From IMG/VR virus record IMGVR_UViG_3300044609_000595, positions 1 to 64,000 of that record: DNA of 64,000 nt. One strand, 5' to 3'. The translations under genes and the position numbers were made by a program. Shown one piece after another: positions 29,773-44,476 of the stretch. How positions within the stretch are numbered: position 1 is the first letter of the stretch; every line of letters starts with the position of its first letter. The notes under the pieces are model-generated. The model did not search any database, was not told the DNA's origin, and saw only the letters and a program-made list of their open reading frames with translations. The DNA comes from a virus.

Positions 29773-30513
29773 TTAATACAAATAATCTTTGAGTTGGGGA
29801 AACGTCTTTTCGATTTCCTCAACTCTTTTTTGTATGTCTGGGTCATACAAAGCCATACTAGTTTCTATCAATCCATATGAAGGAAAAGTATATTTTATAT
29901 GTTCTGTTTGATTGAACGTATCAATAACAGTATCATCTCTTCCATTTAATCTTGTTTTTTTCACATCAATATCACAGAAAGAAAAGTCAGTTACTTCTGG
30001 TAAATTAAAGTGATTACATACCCGATTTAAAGTTTCTTTTTTATCTTGTAAGAAATCGTTGGTAGTTATCCACAAAACATCTGAATTATCCAACATACGG
30101 AATACGCTACACAACCAAACGTATATTACTTTGTTTAAATCATCTTCTGGATTCCAATTGATTGCTGGGTGATTTTGATTGTTTAAAATATAATCTGTCT
30201 TGGGTAATCTTTGTTTAACCCATATAGGATCTACAGATTTAATTTTACACAGATGTTGTGCTAAAGGTCTGTATAGAAATACTTTATTTCCAGGAAAGTT
30301 TGTTTCAAAGCAAGTAGTCATACTTGGAAACTTAACAACAGACCCATAGAAATTTTCTATGTTTTTATATGGATCTGTTCCAATCAATAAAGACTTTGCC
30401 CAGGATGGTTCAGCATATGCTTTACATACTGTAGATAGCAATGAGGTCATTAGTGTAGAACCACACCTTGCTACGTGATAGATTTGATGTATTTGTTCAG
30501 ACATAATTATCAC
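29773..30513 (-). CDS. Sulfotransferase-like protein
   Basis: N-terminal HVARCGSTL resembles the 5'-PAPS-binding loop; FLYRP resembles the 3'-PB motif. Confidence 0.55.
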   Translation of the reverse strand: MIIMSEQIHQIYHVARCGSTLMTSLLSTVCKAYAEPSWAKSLLIGTDPYKNIENFYGSVVKFPSMTTCFETNFPGNKVFLYRPLAQHLCKIKSVDPIWVKQRLPKTDYILNNQNHPAINWNPEDDLNKVIYVWLCSVFRMLDNSDVLWITTNDFLQDKKETLNRVCNHFNLPEVTDFSFCDIDVKKTRLNGRDDTVIDTFNQTEHIKYTFPSYGLIETSMALYDPDIQKRVEEIEKTFPQLKDYLY

Positions 30514-31114
30514 TATTTTTTACACTCATAAACTGAGATATGCAGTATCTCCCATCACCATTCCAATAAGCATCATCATTTATAGATACTTTCTTTACGC
30601 CGTGCCCTACATATCCAGGTAACAAAATGAAAGTATTATGTGAACACTCAATTTCGTAATTGTATTGTGGAAAATACAATTCCCCGCCACTAAACTTCTT
30701 TGGTGTGGTGTGGAAATATGAGAAGGTTAAAAACTCATGCCCAATATCTGTATGAGGTTGGTATCCCTCTCCATTGTGGTAGTATCTTAACTTTGTGATA
30801 ACCATATTCACATATCTGAGGCGTAATAAATGAGGCCATTTATTTACGATTGTTGATATGAATGGAGTATCTAATGTTTTCTTTGTAACTTGTAGAATAT
30901 TAGATAACTCTGGCATAGCATATGCTTTTTCCAGGTGTAGTGCTCTGCTTTCAGTAAGTTCTGAATTACTAGCGTGATGAACTCCTGGTTTGTATATTTT
31001 GTTTGGATGGGATAAAAATTTAATTTCTTCTAGTATTAATGCTAACTCTTTTTCACTATAAAAGTTTTCAATTAATACATGAGGGAATGGATCATCAAGT
31101 AATTTTATATTCAT
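30497..31114 (-). CDS. 2OG-Fe(II) oxygenase (prolyl-hydroxylase-like)
   Basis: HTD...GGELYF...HGV...R. Confidence 0.85.
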   Translation of the reverse strand: MNIKLLDDPFPHVLIENFYSEKELALILEEIKFLSHPNKIYKPGVHHASNSELTESRALHLEKAYAMPELSNILQVTKKTLDTPFISTIVNKWPHLLRLRYVNMVITKLRYYHNGEGYQPHTDIGHEFLTFSYFHTTPKKFSGGELYFPQYNYEIECSHNTFILLPGYVGHGVKKVSINDDAYWNGDGRYCISQFMSVKNSDNYV

Positions 31115-31367: not shown

Positions 31368-32294
31368 TTATAAAACAGTAAATGTATTAGAACCTGTAAA
31401 AGTATGTATAACGTAAGCAGTTCCGCCCACTGTAACATATGTAATGGTTCCTCCAGTTGCTTTAGCAACAGTGCCAGGATATCGAATTACAACTACCCCA
31501 GAACCACCACTAGATGAAAAAGCTGAAGAAGTAGTAGTTTGACCATGAGCACCACCGCCACTATTTGCTGGGGCATTTGTTGTGAATGCATTATTTGGAT
31601 CTCCATTAGTTCCAGTAGTACCTTCACCTGCTCCACCACCTCCCCACCCAACATAACTATCAGAAGTAGTAGAAAATGATGTTAAATTATATGCGGCACC
31701 ACCATTGCCTCCAGTACCACCAAAAGGTCCCACGCTAGTAGTAGTGCCAGCACCTCCATATCCACCACCGCCGCCGCCGCCATAATCCAAGATATTTGCG
31801 CCACCTCCATTATTACCTTGACCAGCAGTTCCTGTTCCCGCAGTAAGTCTTACTGTTGGAAAACTAGTTGACCTAGAAGAAGTACCACCGCCACCAGAAC
31901 TACCATTTTTATCTGTGCCAGAACTTCCGCCAGAACCACCGCCTAATGATGTAAAAACAGCAGCCCCACCAGCAGATAAAGCATAATATGTAGAACTTCC
32001 TTTACCAGTAGAGTTGTCGGCACCAGCACCACCAGCACCAATAGTAAGATATAAAGAACTTCCGTTTGTTGTAGTTCCGCTAGTGGTTCTTACGCCACCA
32101 CCGCCACCACCTCCAGAATAAGTTGCCGAAATAAAATCATCATCAGCTCTTCCTGTATTATACCCTACAGCATAAGAACCTCCGCCGCCGCCAACTAACA
32201 ACATTTCCCAATTCAACGGAACTGCTGGTGGTATTGTTGATTTTGCTATACCAAATGCTTTACTGCTACCTATACCAAATGCTATTGGACTCAT
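31368..32294 (-). CDS. Glycine-rich tail-fibre/adhesin protein
   Basis: GGGGG repeats, GGSGVVVIRY and IHTFTGS. Confidence 0.8.
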   Translation of the reverse strand: MSPIAFGIGSSKAFGIAKSTIPPAVPLNWEMLLVGGGGGSYAVGYNTGRADDDFISATYSGGGGGGGVRTTSGTTTNGSSLYLTIGAGGAGADNSTGKGSSTYYALSAGGAAVFTSLGGGSGGSSGTDKNGSSGGGGTSSRSTSFPTVRLTAGTGTAGQGNNGGGANILDYGGGGGGGYGGAGTTTSVGPFGGTGGNGGAAYNLTSFSTTSDSYVGWGGGGAGEGTTGTNGDPNNAFTTNAPANSGGGAHGQTTTSSAFSSSGGSGVVVIRYPGTVAKATGGTITYVTVGGTAYVIHTFTGSNTFTVL

Positions 32295-32302
32295 ATTACA
32301 CC

Positions 32303-35300
32303 TCAGCTAAAGTTTGTATTGCCTGAACCAAACACGTTAATCGTGCCAGCACTATCTCTTACGATAGTGAATGTGATTACATCGAAGTTATTTGTTGCTG
32401 TTGGAGCAGAACCACCAGACCACTTAACTCCACCAGAAACAGCATTACCATTTACACTACAAGCATCACCATAGGTTTGTGCTGTATCACCATCAATGAT
32501 TAAAGTTACTGTTGTTGCCTTACTGTTTGCTGTTGGAACGTTAGTGAATGCCCAAGTAGTTACAGAAGCGTTAAGGTCTCCAAGAACAACAGTTGCTGCT
32601 GATGTATCTACAGTAAGTGTTCCAGTTGAAGGAGAAAGTGTAGTGTTGAAATTATTTACAGAAGTTTCTGTGATCTGTTTGAGGTTCGTTGTAGTGGTAA
32701 CAGTAAGACCACCAAACATAGTTACGTCACCAGTAGAAGCAGAAATAGTTAATCGTTCAGTAAATACAGTATTAGCATCATTAACTGTTCTGAATGTAAA
32801 ATAACCGCCACTATTATTGTAAGCACGAAGATCCCATTTACTTTGATTTGCTGTTCCTCCACTTACAGTATATCTGATGAATGGATCTGTAGATGTTAAG
32901 TTTACTGAACCAGAAGAAGCACTACCAGCAAAATTAAAAGTAGATGTTCCACTTACAGTTAGACTTGTTAGAGAACCAACAGAAGTTAAACTAGAACTTG
33001 TGACACCACCCCCCAAAGCAAATGAACCAGACGAAGGACCAATCTGAGAATTACTAGCAATTAAAACGTTACCAATTCTGTATTGTTTGCCAGATGCTAA
33101 GTCGAAATGCTCTGTGGATGTCCAAGCATCTGTAGTATCAGACCACAGAATTGATTTATCTGTAGTTCCTTTGAGAACGATACCGCCATTGTTTGCTGAT
33201 AGGTCTGAAGGTCCAACAGCATTAAATGTAGCAGCACCAGATGAACCAGTAACATTGTTTGATAGGGTTGCTGAATTACCACTGATTGAAACAATTGTAG
33301 TGCCAGCAGGAACGCTAATACCAGCAGTTGTAATGCTAACTTCGATGCCAGGAATTAATCCTGCAGTTGGCGTGATACCAGAAATAGTGGCACTATTGTT
33401 TGTAACTGTTGCAACAAAGGTTGAGTTTACAACAGCACCAATTTCAATAGTCTTATCGTCCACCGAAAGAACAGAAGAATTGATTGTCGTAGTGGTTCCA
33501 TTTACTGTTAAATTACCACTCAATACAAAATTACCACCAACGTTAAAGTTTCTTGGCACAGTAACGTCGAAGTTACTATCTCCACGAACCCACGTTTCTG
33601 TACCAGAACCAATTACTAGTTGTCTATCACCAGAAATTGATGGTGGTTGATATGTAGCATTGGTACTATTCTCATCATCAGCAGGACCGATTAAAACGTT
33701 ACCTGTTCCTAGGCAGTTATAACCAGCAAAGTGTCCAATACAAACGTTAGCATTACCACTTTGGCTTTCTCCCAAAGTATTTGAGCCAACAGCAGTATTT
33801 TTGCCACCAACCAGAAGGTTGAGCATTGAATCTCTACCAACTGCTGTGTTGGCAGAACCAGTGTTGGCGTTTCTAAGTGCTCTGTAACCATATGATGTGT
33901 TTGAAGCACCAGAACTTAGAGCTGATGATGCTTCAAAACCTACGGCAGTGTTTTGACTACCAGTTGAGTTGGTTTGTAGAGCATTAAAACCAACTCTGGT
34001 GTTGGAAGCAATAGCGTTTCCGCCTCTACCAATACGGAATGGGTTGGCGCTGGTGCCTCTAATAGTAACATCAGCATTTACGAAATCAACTGTACCGTTA
34101 ACTGTTAGTGTGTCGCCAACAATTGTGTTTAAAGTGACGTTCTTTGCTACACTTAGACCGTGGCGAATTGTTGTTGTGCCAGTACCATTGGCACCTAAAG
34201 TAATTGCTGTGGCAACACCAAAAGCACTAATTGAAGTTGCTGTAGAATTTAATAGAGCAAATGATGTACTAGAGGTTCCGATGCTATCAACAAAGTTTGG
34301 GTTCTGGTTGAATAGTAAAACTCCCGTTCCACTACTATCAGAAATAATACCTCTCAACTGAGTTGAAGTTGTGGTAGCAAACGCCGCTAACGTATCCGCT
34401 GTATAAGCAACACTACCACCAGTTCTAAAAGCAACAGTAGAACCATCAGTACCAGAGAATGTTACTGTATTGCTAGCAGTTAAAGTTTTTGAGTTGGCAA
34501 TTGTGAGTGTGCCAGATGCCGTGGTTGTAATTGTTAATCCATTGATGCTAGTTGCTGTAGCAATACCAAGAGTTGGACTAGTAAGAGTTGGGGAAGTTAG
34601 AGTTTTGTTAGTTAAAGTTTGTGTTTCGGCTTCAGTTACTAATCTACGACGAACAGATCCGTCATAAACACTCCAGTATGAACCAGATTCAAACCACTGG
34701 AGTGATGTATATGTTTGTGCTACTCCAGAAGAATTAGTAGTTCTGTTTAAACGAATACCACCATCAGAACCAACGAGATTATTTCCTCTTCTTAATTCAA
34801 TTTCGTTATCAGTGACGGTTAGAGTTTGTGTATTTAAAGTAGTAGTTGTTCCACTAACAACAAAGTCACCGCCAATAGTTACTGTTGATCCATCATCGGT
34901 AATAATGCTATTAGTAAATTGTTTGTTTGAGTTATCCCATTTAATAACTTTAGAATCAGTAAAGTTGTTTGAGTTTTTAATTGAAAATTCTGTGGTTGAT
35001 AATGTAAGACCACCGTTAGCAGAAGCTGTGTAAGTAGTATTTGTATCTACTGCAGAAATATTGATTGTGCTGCCAGTCTGTGATACGGTAGCAGCTCCAG
35101 AAGAAGTGAAAGTAACATCTCCAGAAACATATGATCCTGTTGCTGTTCCTCTTAACCTAGTTACAGTATTTGTGTCAGTTGACGATATAGTAATTGTTGA
35201 ATTTGTTTGTGATACTACAGATGCACCAGAAGCAACAATAGTAATATCGCCAGTATTATAAGATGCTGTAGTACCACCTCTCACACGGGTGATAGTATCT

Positions 35301-36082
35301 TGAGAAGAAATTGTGATGTCACCACCGTTTTGTGTGACGGTTGATGCTCCTGCTTGAAGGAAAGTAAAATCACCTGAAGCTAAAGTTTGTCCAGTTCCAG
35401 CTCTCAATCGGGTGATAGTATCTGTGAATGTGGAGGAAATTGTGATAATATTTCCTGACTGAGAAACTGATGAGGATCCACTAGCAGCAATTGTGACATC
35501 ACCAGATACTAATGAACCACCAGAAGCAGATTGAATACGTGTTACTGTATCTGTATCAATGTAACTAGAATTAATAGTAATAGCATCGTCAGTTCTAGAT
35601 AGAGTTACATTACTGCCAGCTACCAATGATACGTCATCAGTGACACCAGAACCAGCATTGCCACCTGATGTTAATCTGATAATTTTTTGTGATGATGATA
35701 AACCATCGACAGCAGAAATGCTATACGTTGTGTTATTGTCTGGTGTTGATACCGAACCGCCGAGTGGAATAGAAACCCCGTTTATGTTAATTGCAGAATT
35801 AACTAATGCTGTATTCGGGATATTTGAAAAAATGTTAGCACTACCAGAAATAGTACAATTAGTTAAAGTCTTGTTAGTTAATGTTTGGGTGGCATTTAAA
35901 TATACATCTCCAGGACTGTCCCAAACTAATCCAGTACCAGTGCTTTTTAGATACTCGCCACTAACACCAGTGTCACCATTTATTGATAAGCCATTACCAG
36001 TTAAATCTAGGTTATCTCCAGATACCAGTTCTTCAATCTTTTTTGAAACTGGGTTAACAATTAACGGAAAACGATTTGCCAT
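32303..36082 (-). CDS. Long tail fibre protein
   Basis: MANRFPLIVN start, QTLTNKTL repeats, S/T/G-rich, NTAVG beta-roll repeats; ATAAATA upstream on the minus strand. Confidence 0.85.
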   Translation of the reverse strand: MANRFPLIVNPVSKKIEELVSGDNLDLTGNGLSINGDTGVSGEYLKSTGTGLVWDSPGDVYLNATQTLTNKTLTNCTISGSANIFSNIPNTALVNSAININGVSIPLGGSVSTPDNNTTYSISAVDGLSSSQKIIRLTSGGNAGSGVTDDVSLVAGSNVTLSRTDDAITINSSYIDTDTVTRIQSASGGSLVSGDVTIAASGSSSVSQSGNIITISSTFTDTITRLRAGTGQTLASGDFTFLQAGASTVTQNGGDITISSQDTITRVRGGTTASYNTGDITIVASGASVVSQTNSTITISSTDTNTVTRLRGTATGSYVSGDVTFTSSGAATVSQTGSTINISAVDTNTTYTASANGGLTLSTTEFSIKNSNNFTDSKVIKWDNSNKQFTNSIITDDGSTVTIGGDFVVSGTTTTLNTQTLTVTDNEIELRRGNNLVGSDGGIRLNRTTNSSGVAQTYTSLQWFESGSYWSVYDGSVRRRLVTEAETQTLTNKTLTSPTLTSPTLGIATATSINGLTITTTASGTLTIANSKTLTASNTVTFSGTDGSTVAFRTGGSVAYTADTLAAFATTTSTQLRGIISDSSGTGVLLFNQNPNFVDSIGTSSTSFALLNSTATSISAFGVATAITLGANGTGTTTIRHGLSVAKNVTLNTIVGDTLTVNGTVDFVNADVTIRGTSANPFRIGRGGNAIASNTRVGFNALQTNSTGSQNTAVGFEASSALSSGASNTSYGYRALRNANTGSANTAVGRDSMLNLLVGGKNTAVGSNTLGESQSGNANVCIGHFAGYNCLGTGNVLIGPADDENSTNATYQPPSISGDRQLVIGSGTETWVRGDSNFDVTVPRNFNVGGNFVLSGNLTVNGTTTTINSSVLSVDDKTIEIGAVVNSTFVATVTNNSATISGITPTAGLIPGIEVSITTAGISVPAGTTIVSISGNSATLSNNVTGSSGAATFNAVGPSDLSANNGGIVLKGTTDKSILWSDTTDAWTSTEHFDLASGKQYRIGNVLIASNSQIGPSSGSFALGGGVTSSSLTSVGSLTSLTVSGTSTFNFAGSASSGSVNLTSTDPFIRYTVSGGTANQSKWDLRAYNNSGGYFTFRTVNDANTVFTERLTISASTGDVTMFGGLTVTTTTNLKQITETSVNNFNTTLSPSTGTLTVDTSAATVVLGDLNASVTTWAFTNVPTANSKATTVTLIIDGDTAQTYGDACSVNGNAVSGGVKWSGGSAPTATNNFDVITFTIVRDSAGTINVFGSGNTNFS

Positions 36083-40465: not shown

Positions 40466-40494
40466 AAAAATAGGGGGCTTTATGCCCCCTTTAT
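40464..40494. terminator. Bidirectional terminator between convergent genes
   Basis: A-run, then AGGGGGC/GCCCCCT stem, then T-run. Confidence 0.75.
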
Positions 40495-40916
40495 TATTTG
40501 GGTTCCTCTGCAGGAACATACTTATGTTGTATTTTATATCCCATTTCACTTGGCGTCCACCATCCAGATGCTAGAGTAGATATTGAAGTTGCTAAAATTG
40601 CTGATGCTATACCAACACCAACAATCATCCATTTAATTCTGGAAACATCTTCAATTTTTTTCTCTACCAATTCCATTTTTTTATTGACAGAATCTCTCAC
40701 TTCATCAATCATTTTAATAATCAATTCATTAGCTTGTGCGGCATGGTCTAATCTATTTTCATGTCGTTCAAGAATGATAGAAACTGTGTGATTACTTTCG
40801 GTAATCCTATCCACAGCTTTCTCCAACTTGTACAACATTTCTTTAGTTAGATTTTCATAAAATTGAAATTTAGATTCAAGAACTGCAATTTGTCTATTGG
40901 TTATACCAAACCCCAT
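40494..40916 (-). CDS. Coiled-coil protein with C-terminal TM helix (paralog of 17401..17835)
   Basis: VLESK...EML.KLE.AVD.I.ESN shared with the paralog; GGAG RBS. Confidence 0.8.
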   Translation of the reverse strand: MGFGITNRQIAVLESKFQFYENLTKEMLYKLEKAVDRITESNHTVSIILERHENRLDHAAQANELIIKMIDEVRDSVNKKMELVEKKIEDVSRIKWMIVGVGIASAILATSISTLASGWWTPSEMGYKIQHKYVPAEEPK

Positions 40917-40933
40917 AGTAGTTATCTCCCTGG

Positions 40934-41221
40934 TTAATTGGAAATAATAACTTGGGATGATACATTTAACATATTTTGTTCAATAATTTTTGGCTCAGAT
41001 GAATTATCTGGTGCGGGAGACATTGATTGATAAATGTCAGAATCCTGAATTACATCACTCATATCTCCGTAGTTAATAATGCTTTGATCAACTTCTGCAA
41101 GTTGACTATCAACTATATTTTGTTGGTAATTATAATAGGGATTATAATATCTTCTATAATAATAGGGATCTAGATTGTAATATCTCCTATAGTAGGGATA
41201 TGGTTGGTATCTGTAATACAT
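40934..41221 (-). CDS. Protein with Tyr/Arg/Pro-rich N-terminus and acidic C-terminus
   Basis: MYYRYQPYPYYRRYYNLDPYYYRRYYNPYYNY; AGGAG RBS. Confidence 0.8.
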   Translation of the reverse strand: MYYRYQPYPYYRRYYNLDPYYYRRYYNPYYNYQQNIVDSQLAEVDQSIINYGDMSDVIQDSDIYQSMSPAPDNSSEPKIIEQNMLNVSSQVIISN

Positions 41222-41235
41222 TCTGAATCTCCTAC

Positions 41236-41370
41236 TTAGTAACGATAGTAAGGATAATACGAGTCATAAGGGCAATATCTATCATAATAAGGGTAACACC
41301 CATAGCCGTAAGGGCTGTAGTAGTCATAATATCTCCTGTGGTAATAGGGGTAGTATCGTGGATAGTACAT
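41236..41370 (-). CDS. 44-aa peptide, 50% tyrosine
   Basis: Manual translation MYYPRYYPYYHRRYYDYYSPYGYGCYPYYDRYCPYDSYYPYYRY; AGGAG RBS. Confidence 0.8.
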   Translation of the reverse strand: MYYPRYYPYYHRRYYDYYSPYGYGCYPYYDRYCPYDSYYPYYRY

Positions 41371-42115
41371 TTGGTTCTCCTGTTTGGTTTGCTATATCAA
41401 AAGTCCAAATGTCGTATCCTTCCTGTCTAATATAATCGAAAGGAATCCAACAGTATCCGTTGTTTCCCCAAGTAGTTCCAAAACTATTCTTTGCTAAGAA
41501 TAATCTTTTTTCTAAATCATAACCAACCATGCACATAGCATGACCACCAAGACTTTTTTCTTTCCTTCCTGGAAAGTTTACAGTAGAAATACGCTCATTC
41601 AGATCCATAAAACTATCATAAATTTCCATTCCGAATACAACTGGTTTGTTATTATTCAGCACTTGAGTAATATAATAAATGCTAATAAGTTTTTGATACT
41701 TGAGTATTTTTCTTTTTTTAGCATTCGCATAACATTCGTCAGTTGGACGATCATCAAATTTTTCTAAATCATATGGCCATAATGATTCCTCACACACCCC
41801 AAATTTTGCTAACGATTTCAGACCATCTCGTAAAAAGATACCGTTATCTATTTGAATATCTCCATATTCAGCACGGGTGTTGTAATAAATAAACAACCTA
41901 CTGAGGTGGGTGAAGTATTCTGGATACAAACGATTAACACATAATTCATATGCATTTGTAATAGCGTTAGCAGAACAACTGCCTAATGAATCTTGCGATT
42001 CAACATCAGAATCCCACTCACGGAGGTCTACAGATTCTCTGAGAACTTTAGTGCTATCGTTTCTATAAATGTAATCTCTATTATCTTGACGAGATGGTTT
42101 GATATTAAAGTTCAT
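41324..42115 (-). CDS. Papain-family (C1) cysteine protease
   Basis: QDSLGSC, GGHAMCMVGY and KNSFG catalytic motifs; no signal peptide. Confidence 0.9.
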   Translation of the reverse strand: MNFNIKPSRQDNRDYIYRNDSTKVLRESVDLREWDSDVESQDSLGSCSANAITNAYELCVNRLYPEYFTHLSRLFIYYNTRAEYGDIQIDNGIFLRDGLKSLAKFGVCEESLWPYDLEKFDDRPTDECYANAKKRKILKYQKLISIYYITQVLNNNKPVVFGMEIYDSFMDLNERISTVNFPGRKEKSLGGHAMCMVGYDLEKRLFLAKNSFGTTWGNNGYCWIPFDYIRQEGYDIWTFDIANQTGEPNVLSTILPLLPQEIL

Positions 42116-42124
42116 GATTCTAAA

Positions 42125-42736
42125 TTAGATAATTCTCCATTGACCGCCACGAAATACGACGGATACTGATTGATTAGGTACAGAAATAATGTAAGTGTTT
42201 GCGTTGTCAATCTTTTCAGTTCCAGATGGTTTGATAGTAATCTTTCCAGATCCCTGACCATACTCATCTTTGATTGTATAGACACGACCAGTAACGCCAA
42301 TTGGTAGTGTGATCGTGACTGCTGCTCCACTATAGACACCGATGTATTCATCATCGGCAGTAGCTGTATAAGAACCAGTAACTCCAATGGTAGCAATTAA
42401 ATCTGCACCAGAAGATGATACAGTAATGTTACCAGTAGAACCAGAAAGACTAATACCACTGCCAGCAGTTAAAGAAAGAACACCAGTGTTGGAAATGGTG
42501 AATGATGTATCATTACCTGTAGTAACAACATCAGTCAACTGAATACCATCACCAGAAGAAGGTGTTACTGAGGTGACAGCAACTTCTCCGTTGACGGTAA
42601 CTTGACTGAAAGATACAGAAGCATCTGGAGATACATCTTGTCCTAATGAAATAAATCCATCAAAAACATTAATGAAATCTCCAATTCCAACCACTCCATA
42701 ATCTGTTTTTGATGTAGGTTGTGCTAAGTATGCCAT
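42125..42736 (-). CDS. Fibre-like beta-rich protein
   Basis: GVLSLTAGSGISLS repeats; C-terminal domain YTATADDEYIGV...ITLP...W.II; GGAG RBS. Confidence 0.75.
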   Translation of the reverse strand: MAYLAQPTSKTDYGVVGIGDFINVFDGFISLGQDVSPDASVSFSQVTVNGEVAVTSVTPSSGDGIQLTDVVTTGNDTSFTISNTGVLSLTAGSGISLSGSTGNITVSSSGADLIATIGVTGSYTATADDEYIGVYSGAAVTITLPIGVTGRVYTIKDEYGQGSGKITIKPSGTEKIDNANTYIISVPNQSVSVVFRGGQWRII

Positions 42737-42747
42737 TGTTTACTCCG

Positions 42748-43353
42748 TTAGATGATGTACCAATCTCCACCACGACAAAATAAATTTACCGATTGATAAG
42801 GTACTGTCATTACGTATTTGTCTGTGCCATCGATATAACTACCATCAGAAGTAGTTACAGTTACTTTACGATTTCCTAGTGGCGGACCCATCTCTGCCTT
42901 TACAATGATCTCACAACAGTCGGTACATTCTGAAGGTAACGTAATAGTAACAGGTCCGTCGCTATTGACACCGATGTAGTAATCATCACAAGTAGCAGTA
43001 TAATCAGATGAAACCAAGATGCTTTTGCATTTGCATGAGCACTCTCCTGGTGGTCCCTGCGGTCCTGGTGGACCTTGCTCCCCTGGGGGTCCTGGTATCC
43101 CCTCTCCTGGTGGCCCTGGTGGTCCTGGTGGACCTTGCTCGCCTGGTGGCCCTGGGGGTCCTGGGGGGCATTCATCGGGACAATCATCACCATCAATATT
43201 GATGTTGATATTATCATTACCACCATTGTTAAGTAATTCTGTTATTTCAGAACGAATTGCCTGAATATTACTGAGGAGATTGTTATTACCGCCTCTTTCA
43301 TAATCAGACAACATATTATAAAGATCAATAAGTTTTCTTTCTGCTGAGTCCAT
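42748..43353 (-). CDS. Collagen-like protein with Cys clusters and C-terminal beta domain
   Basis: About 13 Gly-X-Y triplets (mostly GPP) flanked by CPDEC and CSCKC; AAGGAG RBS. Confidence 0.85.
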
Positions 43354-43367
43354 AGTTATTCTCCTTT

Positions 43368-43396
43368 AAAAAAAGGGGGGAGATAACTCCCCCTTA
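43368..43396 (-). terminator. Internal terminator after the first cassette gene
   Basis: Minus strand reads AAGGGGGAG-TTAT-CTCCCCCC followed by a T-run. Confidence 0.75.
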
Positions 43397-43412
43397 TAAC
43401 TACTGAACTAAA

Positions 43413-44141
43413 TCAGCGAACGTTGTTGCTGGTTGAAGATTGACCAACACCAGCCATGGTTCCAAAGTTAACCATTCCCTGACGGGTTTCTTGTAATTGG
43501 CTTTGGAAAGCATTCAATTGGGAAGCAACTGAAGCAAATTGTGCATTGTTAGCACTACCTACAGCATCCCAGTAACCGTGGCGAAAGTGATTAACATCGG
43601 TATTGCGCTCAATCAGAAGACGATTAAGCTCGTCATTCTTTAGTGATTGAATAAGAGCACGGGTGGCATCACCTTCGTTGGCGATTTCTCTTGCTAGGTC
43701 ATACTTGCTTTCAGCAACTTCCTTGCTGAGTTGTGATTGACCTAAAGCAATTGCGGTGCCAAGTCTTGCTGACTCAAGAGCAGTAGCAGTAGCAGCCTTC
43801 TCAGTAGAGAGAAGAATCTCTGTGCTGAGTTTTTGAGAAGCGAGGTCAGTCTGTGCTCTGAGAGCAGCAAGGTCACGGGAGTTATCAAAATCTCTTGCTT
43901 GCCCAGCAATAAAAAAGTCAGCAGCTCTTTGCTGAATCTTGTCAGCAGCTTCGTCTACCTTGGTTGATACATTAGCACCAGTAACCAAAACTTCACGATT
44001 AATTGCATCGTTGCCAACAGCAACAGCATACTTGGTCTCACCGAAACCGATTGCTTGTTCTCTACGAATATCGGAATGGTCTACAGTATATTCTCTACGT
44101 AAATCTGACCATGGATCAGAATACATTACTTGATCTGCCAT
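43413..44141 (-). CDS. Ala/Gln-rich long alpha-helical (coiled-coil) protein
   Basis: True start MADQVMY with TAAGGAG RBS; EIANEGDATRALIQ segment. Confidence 0.8.
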   Translation of the reverse strand: MADQVMYSDPWSDLRREYTVDHSDIRREQAIGFGETKYAVAVGNDAINREVLVTGANVSTKVDEAADKIQQRAADFFIAGQARDFDNSRDLAALRAQTDLASQKLSTEILLSTEKAATATALESARLGTAIALGQSQLSKEVAESKYDLAREIANEGDATRALIQSLKNDELNRLLIERNTDVNHFRHGYWDAVGSANNAQFASVASQLNAFQSQLQETRQGMVNFGTMAGVGQSSTSNNVR

Positions 44142-44379
44142 TTGTTTTCTCCTTAAGGAAAAGAATGTGTTTGAATAGAGGAGAAAACGATTCAATCCGT
44201 CCATGACATAATGCCAGACGAATCTATCCAACAGACGACTGTAGGTGAATCGTCTGGGATTACTTCTATTTAAAATTGAATCGTAATTCAATTAGAGGTG
44301 AAGGATTAATGAAAGAGCCATTGCTGGAATCTTTTAGTAATACATCTGGTCTCTAACCGAAGGATCTCTCCCCCACGTT

Positions 44380-44387
44380 TATTTATA
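44380..44387 (-). promoter_or_regulatory. T4 late promoter driving the minus-strand cassette
   Basis: Exact TATAAATA on the minus strand, about 240 nt upstream of ATG 44141. Confidence 0.7.
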
Positions 44388-44425
44388 AAAAATGTTTTGT
44401 CGCCAATCGAACAGTTGATGCCCCC

Positions 44426-44454
44426 TTGACAAACCCGAGAAAGCGGCGTACAAT
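44426..44454 (+). promoter_or_regulatory. Sigma70-like early promoter
   Basis: TTGACA N17 TACAAT. Confidence 0.75.
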
Positions 44455-44476
44455 GTCAGAGTAATTTTTGAAACCT

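Follow-up and report, generated by a model that had tools for sequence, protein, structure and literature searches.

What might a freshwater phage build with a run of adjacent genes encoding a helical rod, two short fibres, a papain-family protease and two proteins unusually rich in tyrosine? The question is raised by a locus at positions 40494-44387 of the stretch of DNA studied here, positions 1 to 64,000 of the IMG/VR virus record IMGVR_UViG_3300044609_000595, which we refer to in its full length of 64,000 nucleotides (nt) as the window. An initial reading of the letters alone (hereafter the first-pass annotation) proposed that the seven genes, here called g1 to g7 from the promoter-proximal end, specify a self-assembling, cross-linked coat or matrix. 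We find that g1-g6 are a real module, and the best explanation, judging from sequence, is that they are accessory, horizontally mobile, late genes of large T4-like freshwater phages. The reading of their function that we favour, giving it roughly an even chance on the strength of sequence comparisons and structural models, is that g1-g6 equip the virion with an additional composite fibre, or 'hair'. As an accessory phage fibre module, the system would be of a familiar type, in which the partner families (the g1 rod and the Tyr-rich peptides) are undescribed.

All seven open reading frames (ORFs) lie on the minus strand between 44141 and 40494. The genes, the late promoter motif, the internal terminator and the bidirectional terminator reported in the first-pass annotation were each found where it had placed them, and the features are as follows.

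44380-44387, minus strand: T4-type late promoter motif TATAAATA, an exact match with a putative function
44142-44379, minus strand: non-coding 5' leader of around 240 nt, its length kept among related loci
43413-44141, minus strand: g1, acidic Ala-rich protein predicted to be a helical rod, 242 amino acids (aa) from an ATG start; relatives likewise start MAD...
43416-43502, minus strand: g1 C-terminal motif, residues 214-242, near-invariant and common to g6
43376-43393, minus strand: terminator-like GC hairpin and T run after g1, a candidate attenuator from a hairpin scan
42748-43353, minus strand: g2, short collagen-stalk fibre with an N-terminal helix, 201 aa; Pfam Collagen at 29 bits against a cut-off of 27.2
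about 43036-43170, minus strand: Cys-flanked Gly-X-Y run of g2
42751-43026, minus strand: C-terminal knob of g2
42125-42736, minus strand: g3, beta-rich fibre, 203 aa, with the same C-terminal domain as g2
42128-42400, minus strand: g3 knob, residues 113-203, modelled by AlphaFold2 (AF2) with a predicted local distance difference test score (pLDDT) of about 96
41324-42115, minus strand: g4, C1A papain-family cysteine protease, xylellain-like; Peptidase_C1 (PF00112) at 51.9 bits against 20.7
41236-41370, minus strand: g5, 44 aa peptide with 22 Tyr (50%), overlapping the end of g4 by 47 nt
40934-41221, minus strand: g6, 95 aa with 18 Tyr; the N-terminus is rich in Tyr and Arg and is followed by the g1-type motif and by an acidic Pro-rich tail
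41015-41110, minus strand: g6 copy of the g1-type motif, residues 38-69
40494-40916, minus strand: g7, DUF7201 coiled coil with a C-terminal transmembrane helix; PF23831 at 89.9 bits against 27
40472-40490, both strands: bidirectional terminator between convergent genes, the hairpin being scored on each strand

Scans of IMG/VR using g1 and the protease returned 77 loci, 43 of which are distinct once duplicates are removed. g1 is present in all 43 of these, at least one protein with the g2/g3 knob in 42, and a C1 peptidase in 25 (some of the 18 loci in which no peptidase was seen being truncated), with Tyr-rich ORFs found in most. The order and orientation g1, g2, (g3), g4, g5, g6 are preserved even where g1 identity is as low as 33-48%, and a g2-type match follows g1 in all loci having enough downstream sequence, the smallest version of the module consisting of g1 and g2 (loci L006 and L018). 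The test of synteny that the first-pass annotation had proposed for its cassette therefore came out in favour of a strong, conserved linkage of g1-g6, and the independent occurrence of these genes, which it had listed as evidence against a joint function, was not borne out. This conservation also bears on the simplest alternative, that the genes are mere neighbours of unrelated function in a hyperplastic region. The region is a cyanophage accessory-gene island, and g3, g4 and g7 are each missing from some loci, g3 and g7 being optional; however, the arrangement and orientation of the genes persist in very divergent phages, a domain is common to g2 and g3, and a motif is common to g1 and g6, such that we regard this alternative as very improbable.

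Eight loci contain a further conserved gene of the module that does not occur in the window; its product is helical, contains the motif 'PYPxxPPYP' and has a tail that is acidic and rich in Pro. Examples are located at 9387-9848 in L035, 10047-10529 in L047, 11523-12185 in L041 and 9923-10333 in L033.

The carrier is an uncultured freshwater T4-like cyanophage. The parent virus record is 110 kb long, with an estimated completeness of 57%, and nearly the entire stretch was recovered in several lake-water metagenomes; the listed sequencing runs that contain DNA of the locus are lake-water DNA metagenomes, with no RNA run among them. The T4-type major capsid protein gp23 is encoded in both complete carrier genomes (one of 258 kb with terminal repeats, the other of 400 kb) and in three partial ones, and all sufficiently complete carriers of the module are T4-like. 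In agreement with the first-pass annotation, the cassette has no T4 core genes. The module belongs neither to this core nor to any of the cultured phages searched: when 50,697 phage records were queried by tblastn, g3 had no relative among them and g1 matched only weakly and in part (24% of the query, E 2e-4). Similarly, no relative of g1 emerged from a pattern-based scan of 185,579 prokaryote species genomes, whilst unnamed metagenome homologues number more than 1000 for g1 and more than 1000 for g3. The module is abundant in lake viromes, restricted to uncultured large T4-like phages and undescribed in the literature searched.

The first-pass annotation described a Cys-flanked collagen protein and a beta-rich protein sharing a C-terminal domain, which is indeed the arrangement of g2 and g3; the common domain is around 90 residues long. 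The g3 copy matched residues 79-175 of CBA120 TSP4 (7REJ_A, the gp10-like XD region) in VIA, with a Z score of 11.9 and a root-mean-square deviation (rmsd) of 1.9 Å over 89 residues, and other VIA matches were the C-terminus of the Solidus tailspike (Z 11.6), a baseplate protein of Klebsiella phage KP1 (Z 11.0) and the distal knob of the capsid spike of Pseudomonas phage Pa223 (Z 10.6). Foldseek gave an E value of 3.6e-5 and also listed T4 gp9 and gp10. Across gp9/gp10-type proteins as a whole (T4 gp9 and gp10; the N-terminal XD domain of CBA120 TSP4, 7REJ and 7RFV; the KP1 baseplate, 9F4A), the g2/g3 knob superposes with Z scores of 11-12 and rmsd values of 1.6-2.0 Å over 83-91 residues, at 17-24% identity. 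The knob is present in more than 400 viral proteins in BFVD, some of which are named Gp9/Gp10, collagen repeat or tail fibre.

As in the gp9/gp10-type systems, the knob sits on a trimer-type stalk. In g2, the trimer-forming stalk is identified by the Pfam Collagen match, and the collagen run also matches PHROG tail-fibre families. The protein has ten Cys residues, with CPDEC preceding the Gly-X-Y run and CSCKC following it; the length of the run differs between relatives, whilst the flanking Cys clusters are conserved. Reading of the sequence showed only these two flanks, and not the cnidarian minicollagen pattern CX3CX3CX3CX3CC. The stalk of g3 is predicted as beta repeats with pLDDT values of 58-74, leaving its fold uncertain. 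The layout of g3, comprising a conserved N-terminus, beta repeats and a knob, mirrors that of Pa223 gp52 (PDB 9NY6), a homotrimer that attaches through an N-terminal segment and carries a C-terminal knob at the distal end of a beta-helical stalk. This spike is an accessory decoration with a proposed role in adsorption, and the authors describing it term its knob TNF-like (bioRxiv 10.1101/2025.06.11.659172). No sequence relationship to the Pa223 spike was detected, and Pa223 differs in being a podovirus whose spike is unaccompanied by a rod protein, a protease or Tyr-rich partners.

Hence, according to the structural models, in g2 and g3 a beta-sandwich knob of the gp9/gp10 type, as known from phage fibres and spikes, sits on a stalk of collagen or beta type, and the knob fold matches, the Pa223-like layout and the collagen stalk together indicate that they are ordinary phage fibre or spike proteins. 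The first-pass annotation had reasoned that products turning out to be ordinary tail-fibre parts would speak against its coat-like system, and the gp9/gp10-type knob marks g2 and g3 as such parts. There are nevertheless differences from the known systems: in gp10 and TSP4 the domain serves as a hub inside the protein, to which other fibres bind, whereas the g2/g3 knob forms the C-terminal end of very short proteins of around 200 aa, and g1, g4, g5 and g6 are without counterparts in gp9/gp10-type systems.

Some loci have undergone a local expansion of the fibre family, with three to five tandem paralogues in which the same knob is found on differing stalks (L041 8670-11264, L071 and L074).

The product of g1 has no family in Pfam, PHROG or NCBIfam, and a search of the ESM Atlas retrieved only its own viral family, composed entirely of hypothetical proteins. 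The AF2 model is almost wholly helical, with two long helices at residues 32-111 and 115-229. Its hydrophobic period is 3.65-3.67, rather than 3.5; the insertions and deletions that separate homologues come in units of 11 residues, with some of 4, 7 and 22; and longer homologues have added 11-residue repeats, a search for longer forms having found no fused domains. These three properties point to a rod of variable length composed of 11-residue repeats, and g1 is accordingly modelled as a helical rod that varies in whole units of 11 residues. The lengths of both the g1 rod and the g2 stalk therefore change in whole units (11-mers and Gly-X-Y triplets respectively), as expected of spacers. In contrast to this variation, the final 25 or so residues of g1 are near-invariant across homologues that are 30-49% identical. 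Fold searches with the g1 model, which are uninformative for long helices, found only generic coiled coils, the best Foldseek E value being 2.2 and the best VIA Z score 7.1. A Pfam scan of all 24 members of the g1 alignment gave sub-threshold, chance-level hits to Chalcone_2 and a single hit to Baculo_PEP_C (E 0.002), of which no use was made.

The near-invariant tail of g1 recurs in g6, a feature that the first-pass annotation did not describe. A hidden Markov model (HMM) of the g1 tail alone found g6 as the sole other significant ORF in the 110 kb genome (E 1.6e-4), and also matches g6-type proteins in more than 20 loci; conversely, an HMM derived solely from g6-type motifs in other loci matches residues 214-242 of g1, with an E value of 2.4e-7 among 1675 ORFs. 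The g6-type proteins of distant loci stop right after the motif, as g1 does, whereas g6 in this clade adds the acidic tail; no clear pattern was evident between this C-terminal extension and the presence of the protease. The occurrence of a motif of about 30 residues in two otherwise unrelated proteins suggests a common docking site or processing signal, and the motif could hence be a tag for docking or processing. It provides a concrete starting point for understanding how the parts assemble. The motif is not found in g5, in which the Tyr residues are encoded by 12 TAT and 10 TAC codons. Two Cys residues of g5 are conserved, and both the ORF and the Cys spacing are retained in related loci at 54-87% identity. 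No signal peptide or transmembrane helix was apparent on reading the sequences of g1-g6.

A T4-type late unit is characterised by TATAAATA at the -10 position, the lack of a -35 element and dependence on gp55/gp33. The octamer is not enriched in the window, where it occurs four times against 4.3 expected. Its position is conserved, however: 14 of the 43 loci have it no more than 400 nt upstream of g1, many of these at around 245 nt (-241 to -249 in several). The distant loci have no copy in this interval. We infer that transcription starts at the late promoter motif. An Rfam search of the leader and the cassette found no family. A crude scan for a hairpin and T run similar to the one here, 3' of g1, was positive in 16 of the 43 loci, and terminator-like sites in the region number 16, against 3.4 expected from shuffles. 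GGAG-type ribosome-binding sites precede six of the seven genes, as reported in the first-pass annotation, the exception being g4, which starts 8 nt past the g3 stop. Overall, the analysis supports the reading of the cassette as one conserved unit, probably expressed late, with a first gene predicted to be highly expressed.

Two further observations relate to regulation. A near-consensus sigma-70-type promoter is located at 44426-44454 on the plus strand (TTGACA, a 17 nt spacer and TACAAT; 11 of 12 positions), oriented towards the plus-strand genes, such that the spacer at 44142-44467 seems to contain divergent early and late promoters. In 15 distant loci among L033-L047, a gene encoding a LuxR/GerE-type helix-turn-helix protein with a receiver-like N-terminus is found directly upstream of g1 (e.g. 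L041 7083-7817; L047 7113-7721), which, together with the absence of the late motif from distant loci, suggests that the module has a regulator of its own there.

An accessory virion fibre is favoured as the product of g1-g6 because the one domain whose fold is clear is the knob of a virion fibre, the lengths of the rod and stalk behave like those of spacers, g1-g6 have no secretion signal and the carriers are T4-like. In such a scheme, g1 would accumulate in excess over the downstream products by virtue of the hairpin that follows it, and g2 and g3 would trimerise in the cytoplasm, the Cys clusters of g2 forming disulfides that lock the triple helix after the particle leaves the cell. The tail motif would direct both the rod and g6, the Tyr-rich protein, to a single site within the module, most plausibly on g2, as g2 accompanies g1 in essentially every locus. 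The g4 protease might trim components, g6 here extending beyond the motif, or might ride the fibre as an enzyme, whilst g5 and g6 would present sticky aromatic and Arg-rich surfaces involved in adhesion or cohesion. A single complex prediction, of a g2 trimer with residues 150-242 of g1, scored 0.00 against a mark of 0.32 and points neither way.

Several observations weigh against the fibre interpretation. The module is surrounded by auxiliary metabolic genes (psbA, talC and gnd), away from the structural block; the knob is 78-91% identical among more than 100 homologues, which is too conserved for a typical hypervariable receptor-binding tip; no cultured phage carrying the module was found in the tblastn searches; and, to our knowledge, neither a papain-type protease nor a 50% Tyr protein is known as a component of a fibre. 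If g4 and the peptides that are 50% Tyr were fibre-associated, they would represent new kinds of such component, and a module that decorates virions would be an influence, so far unstudied, on how freshwater cyanophages adsorb, aggregate or persist in the environment. A more elaborate form of the idea, to which we give only tentative credence, is that the genes constitute a self-addressed assembly kit, in which a C-terminal tag of about 30 residues docks the 11-mer rod and the Tyr/Arg-rich protein onto the collagen and beta fibres, g4 matures the product into an adhesive or protective composite hair or cloak of the virion, of a new kind, and the whole is exchanged as a block among T4-like freshwater phages.

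The principal competitor to the fibre interpretation is a self-contained, cross-linked coat, matrix or cloak, either apart from the virion or around it, in which g1 would form the abundant subunit of a lattice or filament, the Tyr-rich g5 and g6 a cement, g2 and g3 decorating fibres, and g4 a maturation protease. In its favour, the module moves en bloc between T4-like backbones of 240-400 kb, and g1 is arranged for excess expression, with a hairpin after it. In addition, the g1 tail, the g2 N-terminus and the knob are near-invariant while the backbones diverge, and the constancy of these candidate interaction motifs suggests that their partners lie inside the module. Repeats of 11 residues are also a feature of surface-coating amphipathic helices, such as those of apolipoproteins, perilipins and late embryogenesis abundant (LEA) proteins, and Tyr/Arg-rich low-complexity proteins are classical cohesive, condensate-forming sequences. 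Against this, searches of Pfam, PHROGs and NCBIfam found no match to a coat, exosporium, polyhedrin or S-layer family; no dityrosine-forming oxidase or peroxidase is linked to the cassette, so that the cross-linking supposed in the first-pass annotation did not gain support; the one domain of clear fold belongs to virion fibres; and the T4-like nature of the carriers fits dependence on a T4-type particle. A coat of this type is hence judged unlikely, although it is the strongest of the alternatives.

The likeness to spore coats and exosporium from which the first-pass annotation had argued proved to be one of composition only. None of the seven products matched the BclA, CotY/ExsY or CotC families, at Pfam E values of up to 1 and NCBIfam E values of up to 0.01. 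The layout of g2, with an N-terminal segment, a variable Gly-X-Y triple helix and a C-terminal knob, does resemble that of BclA, C1q and phage collagen-like tail fibres; however, in the case of BclA and C1q the similarity is purely architectural, as g2 shows no sequence family match and no exosporium targeting motif. No BclA or C1q chain was among the 50 VIA matches listed for the knob, but the Pa223 knob has been called TNF-like, making a distant kinship of fold possible. Tyr-rich structural proteins include Bacillus CotC and CotU, plant extensins and mussel foot proteins, with which g5 and g6 have in common their extreme Tyr content, small size and production alongside fibrous proteins. This likeness is again compositional, there being no homology and no linked cross-linking enzyme.

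The identification of g4 as a papain-family protease has held up. The protein matches phrog_16701 (E 6.8e-17). Among solved structures, its best relative is the Xylella fastidiosa protease xylellain (PDB 3OIS), which it matches over residues 7-238 with an E value of 2.8e-38, the Cys, His and Asn motifs being in register. These catalytic motifs comprise Q41, GSC at 45-47 (C47), GGH at 190-192 (H192) and KNS at 209-211 (N210), and on this sequence evidence g4 is a C1A protease carrying the motifs of an active enzyme. It differs from xylellain in being phage-encoded, in its linkage to fibre genes and in lacking an N-terminal pro-region; it is also without a signal peptide.

The intact catalytic motifs and missing prodomain are features that could suit a host-directed role, in which g4 degrades proteins of the host envelope, S-layer, pilus or cytoplasm, either upon adsorption or in late infection, guided to its target by the fibres, or in which the genes act in lysis or superinfection exclusion. 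Related C1 peptidases occur on their own in unrelated jumbo phages, and the enzyme can therefore function where the rest of the module is missing; for the closest, from the cultured phage FLC9 and from LR756511, a record of an uncultured phage, no gene of the module lies within 6 kb, and one relative bears the unverified annotation of endolysin. The adjacent g7, with its transmembrane helix and weak match to a holin PHROG (E 7.5e-4), might also be seen as consistent with lysis. However, the loci lacking a detected peptidase imply that the core of the module is g1 and g2 rather than g4, and g7 is optional and unlinked elsewhere, making a host-directed function quite improbable.

The same facts affect the status of g7, which the first-pass annotation had made the membrane anchor of the cassette, a role that gained no support, the gene being a widespread and unrelated one of cyanomyoviruses. 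Homologues are present in 294 cultured cyanophage records, in S-RIM8 adjoining the primase gene, and the gene is missing from most module loci. Its commonness in cyanomyoviruses, its position beside primase in S-RIM8 and its optional presence here mark it as a neighbour rather than a gene of the module, although in this locus it is probably co-transcribed with the cassette.

The wider surroundings of the cassette are typical cyanomyovirus accessory genes. Upstream are psbA, encoding a photosystem reaction-centre protein, talC (transaldolase) and gnd (6-phosphogluconate dehydrogenase), and downstream are genes for a glutaredoxin and a T4-type RNase H. Around 10 kb from the collagen-like g2, at 30497-31114 on the minus strand, is a gene for a prolyl-hydroxylase-type 2-oxoglutarate-Fe(II) oxygenase, with a score of 24.1 bits that falls slightly below the Pfam cut-off. 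Next to it, also on the minus strand, are genes encoding a protein with a Gly-rich domain (31368-32294) and a 1259 aa protein without a family (32303-36082), which are possibly further fibre genes.

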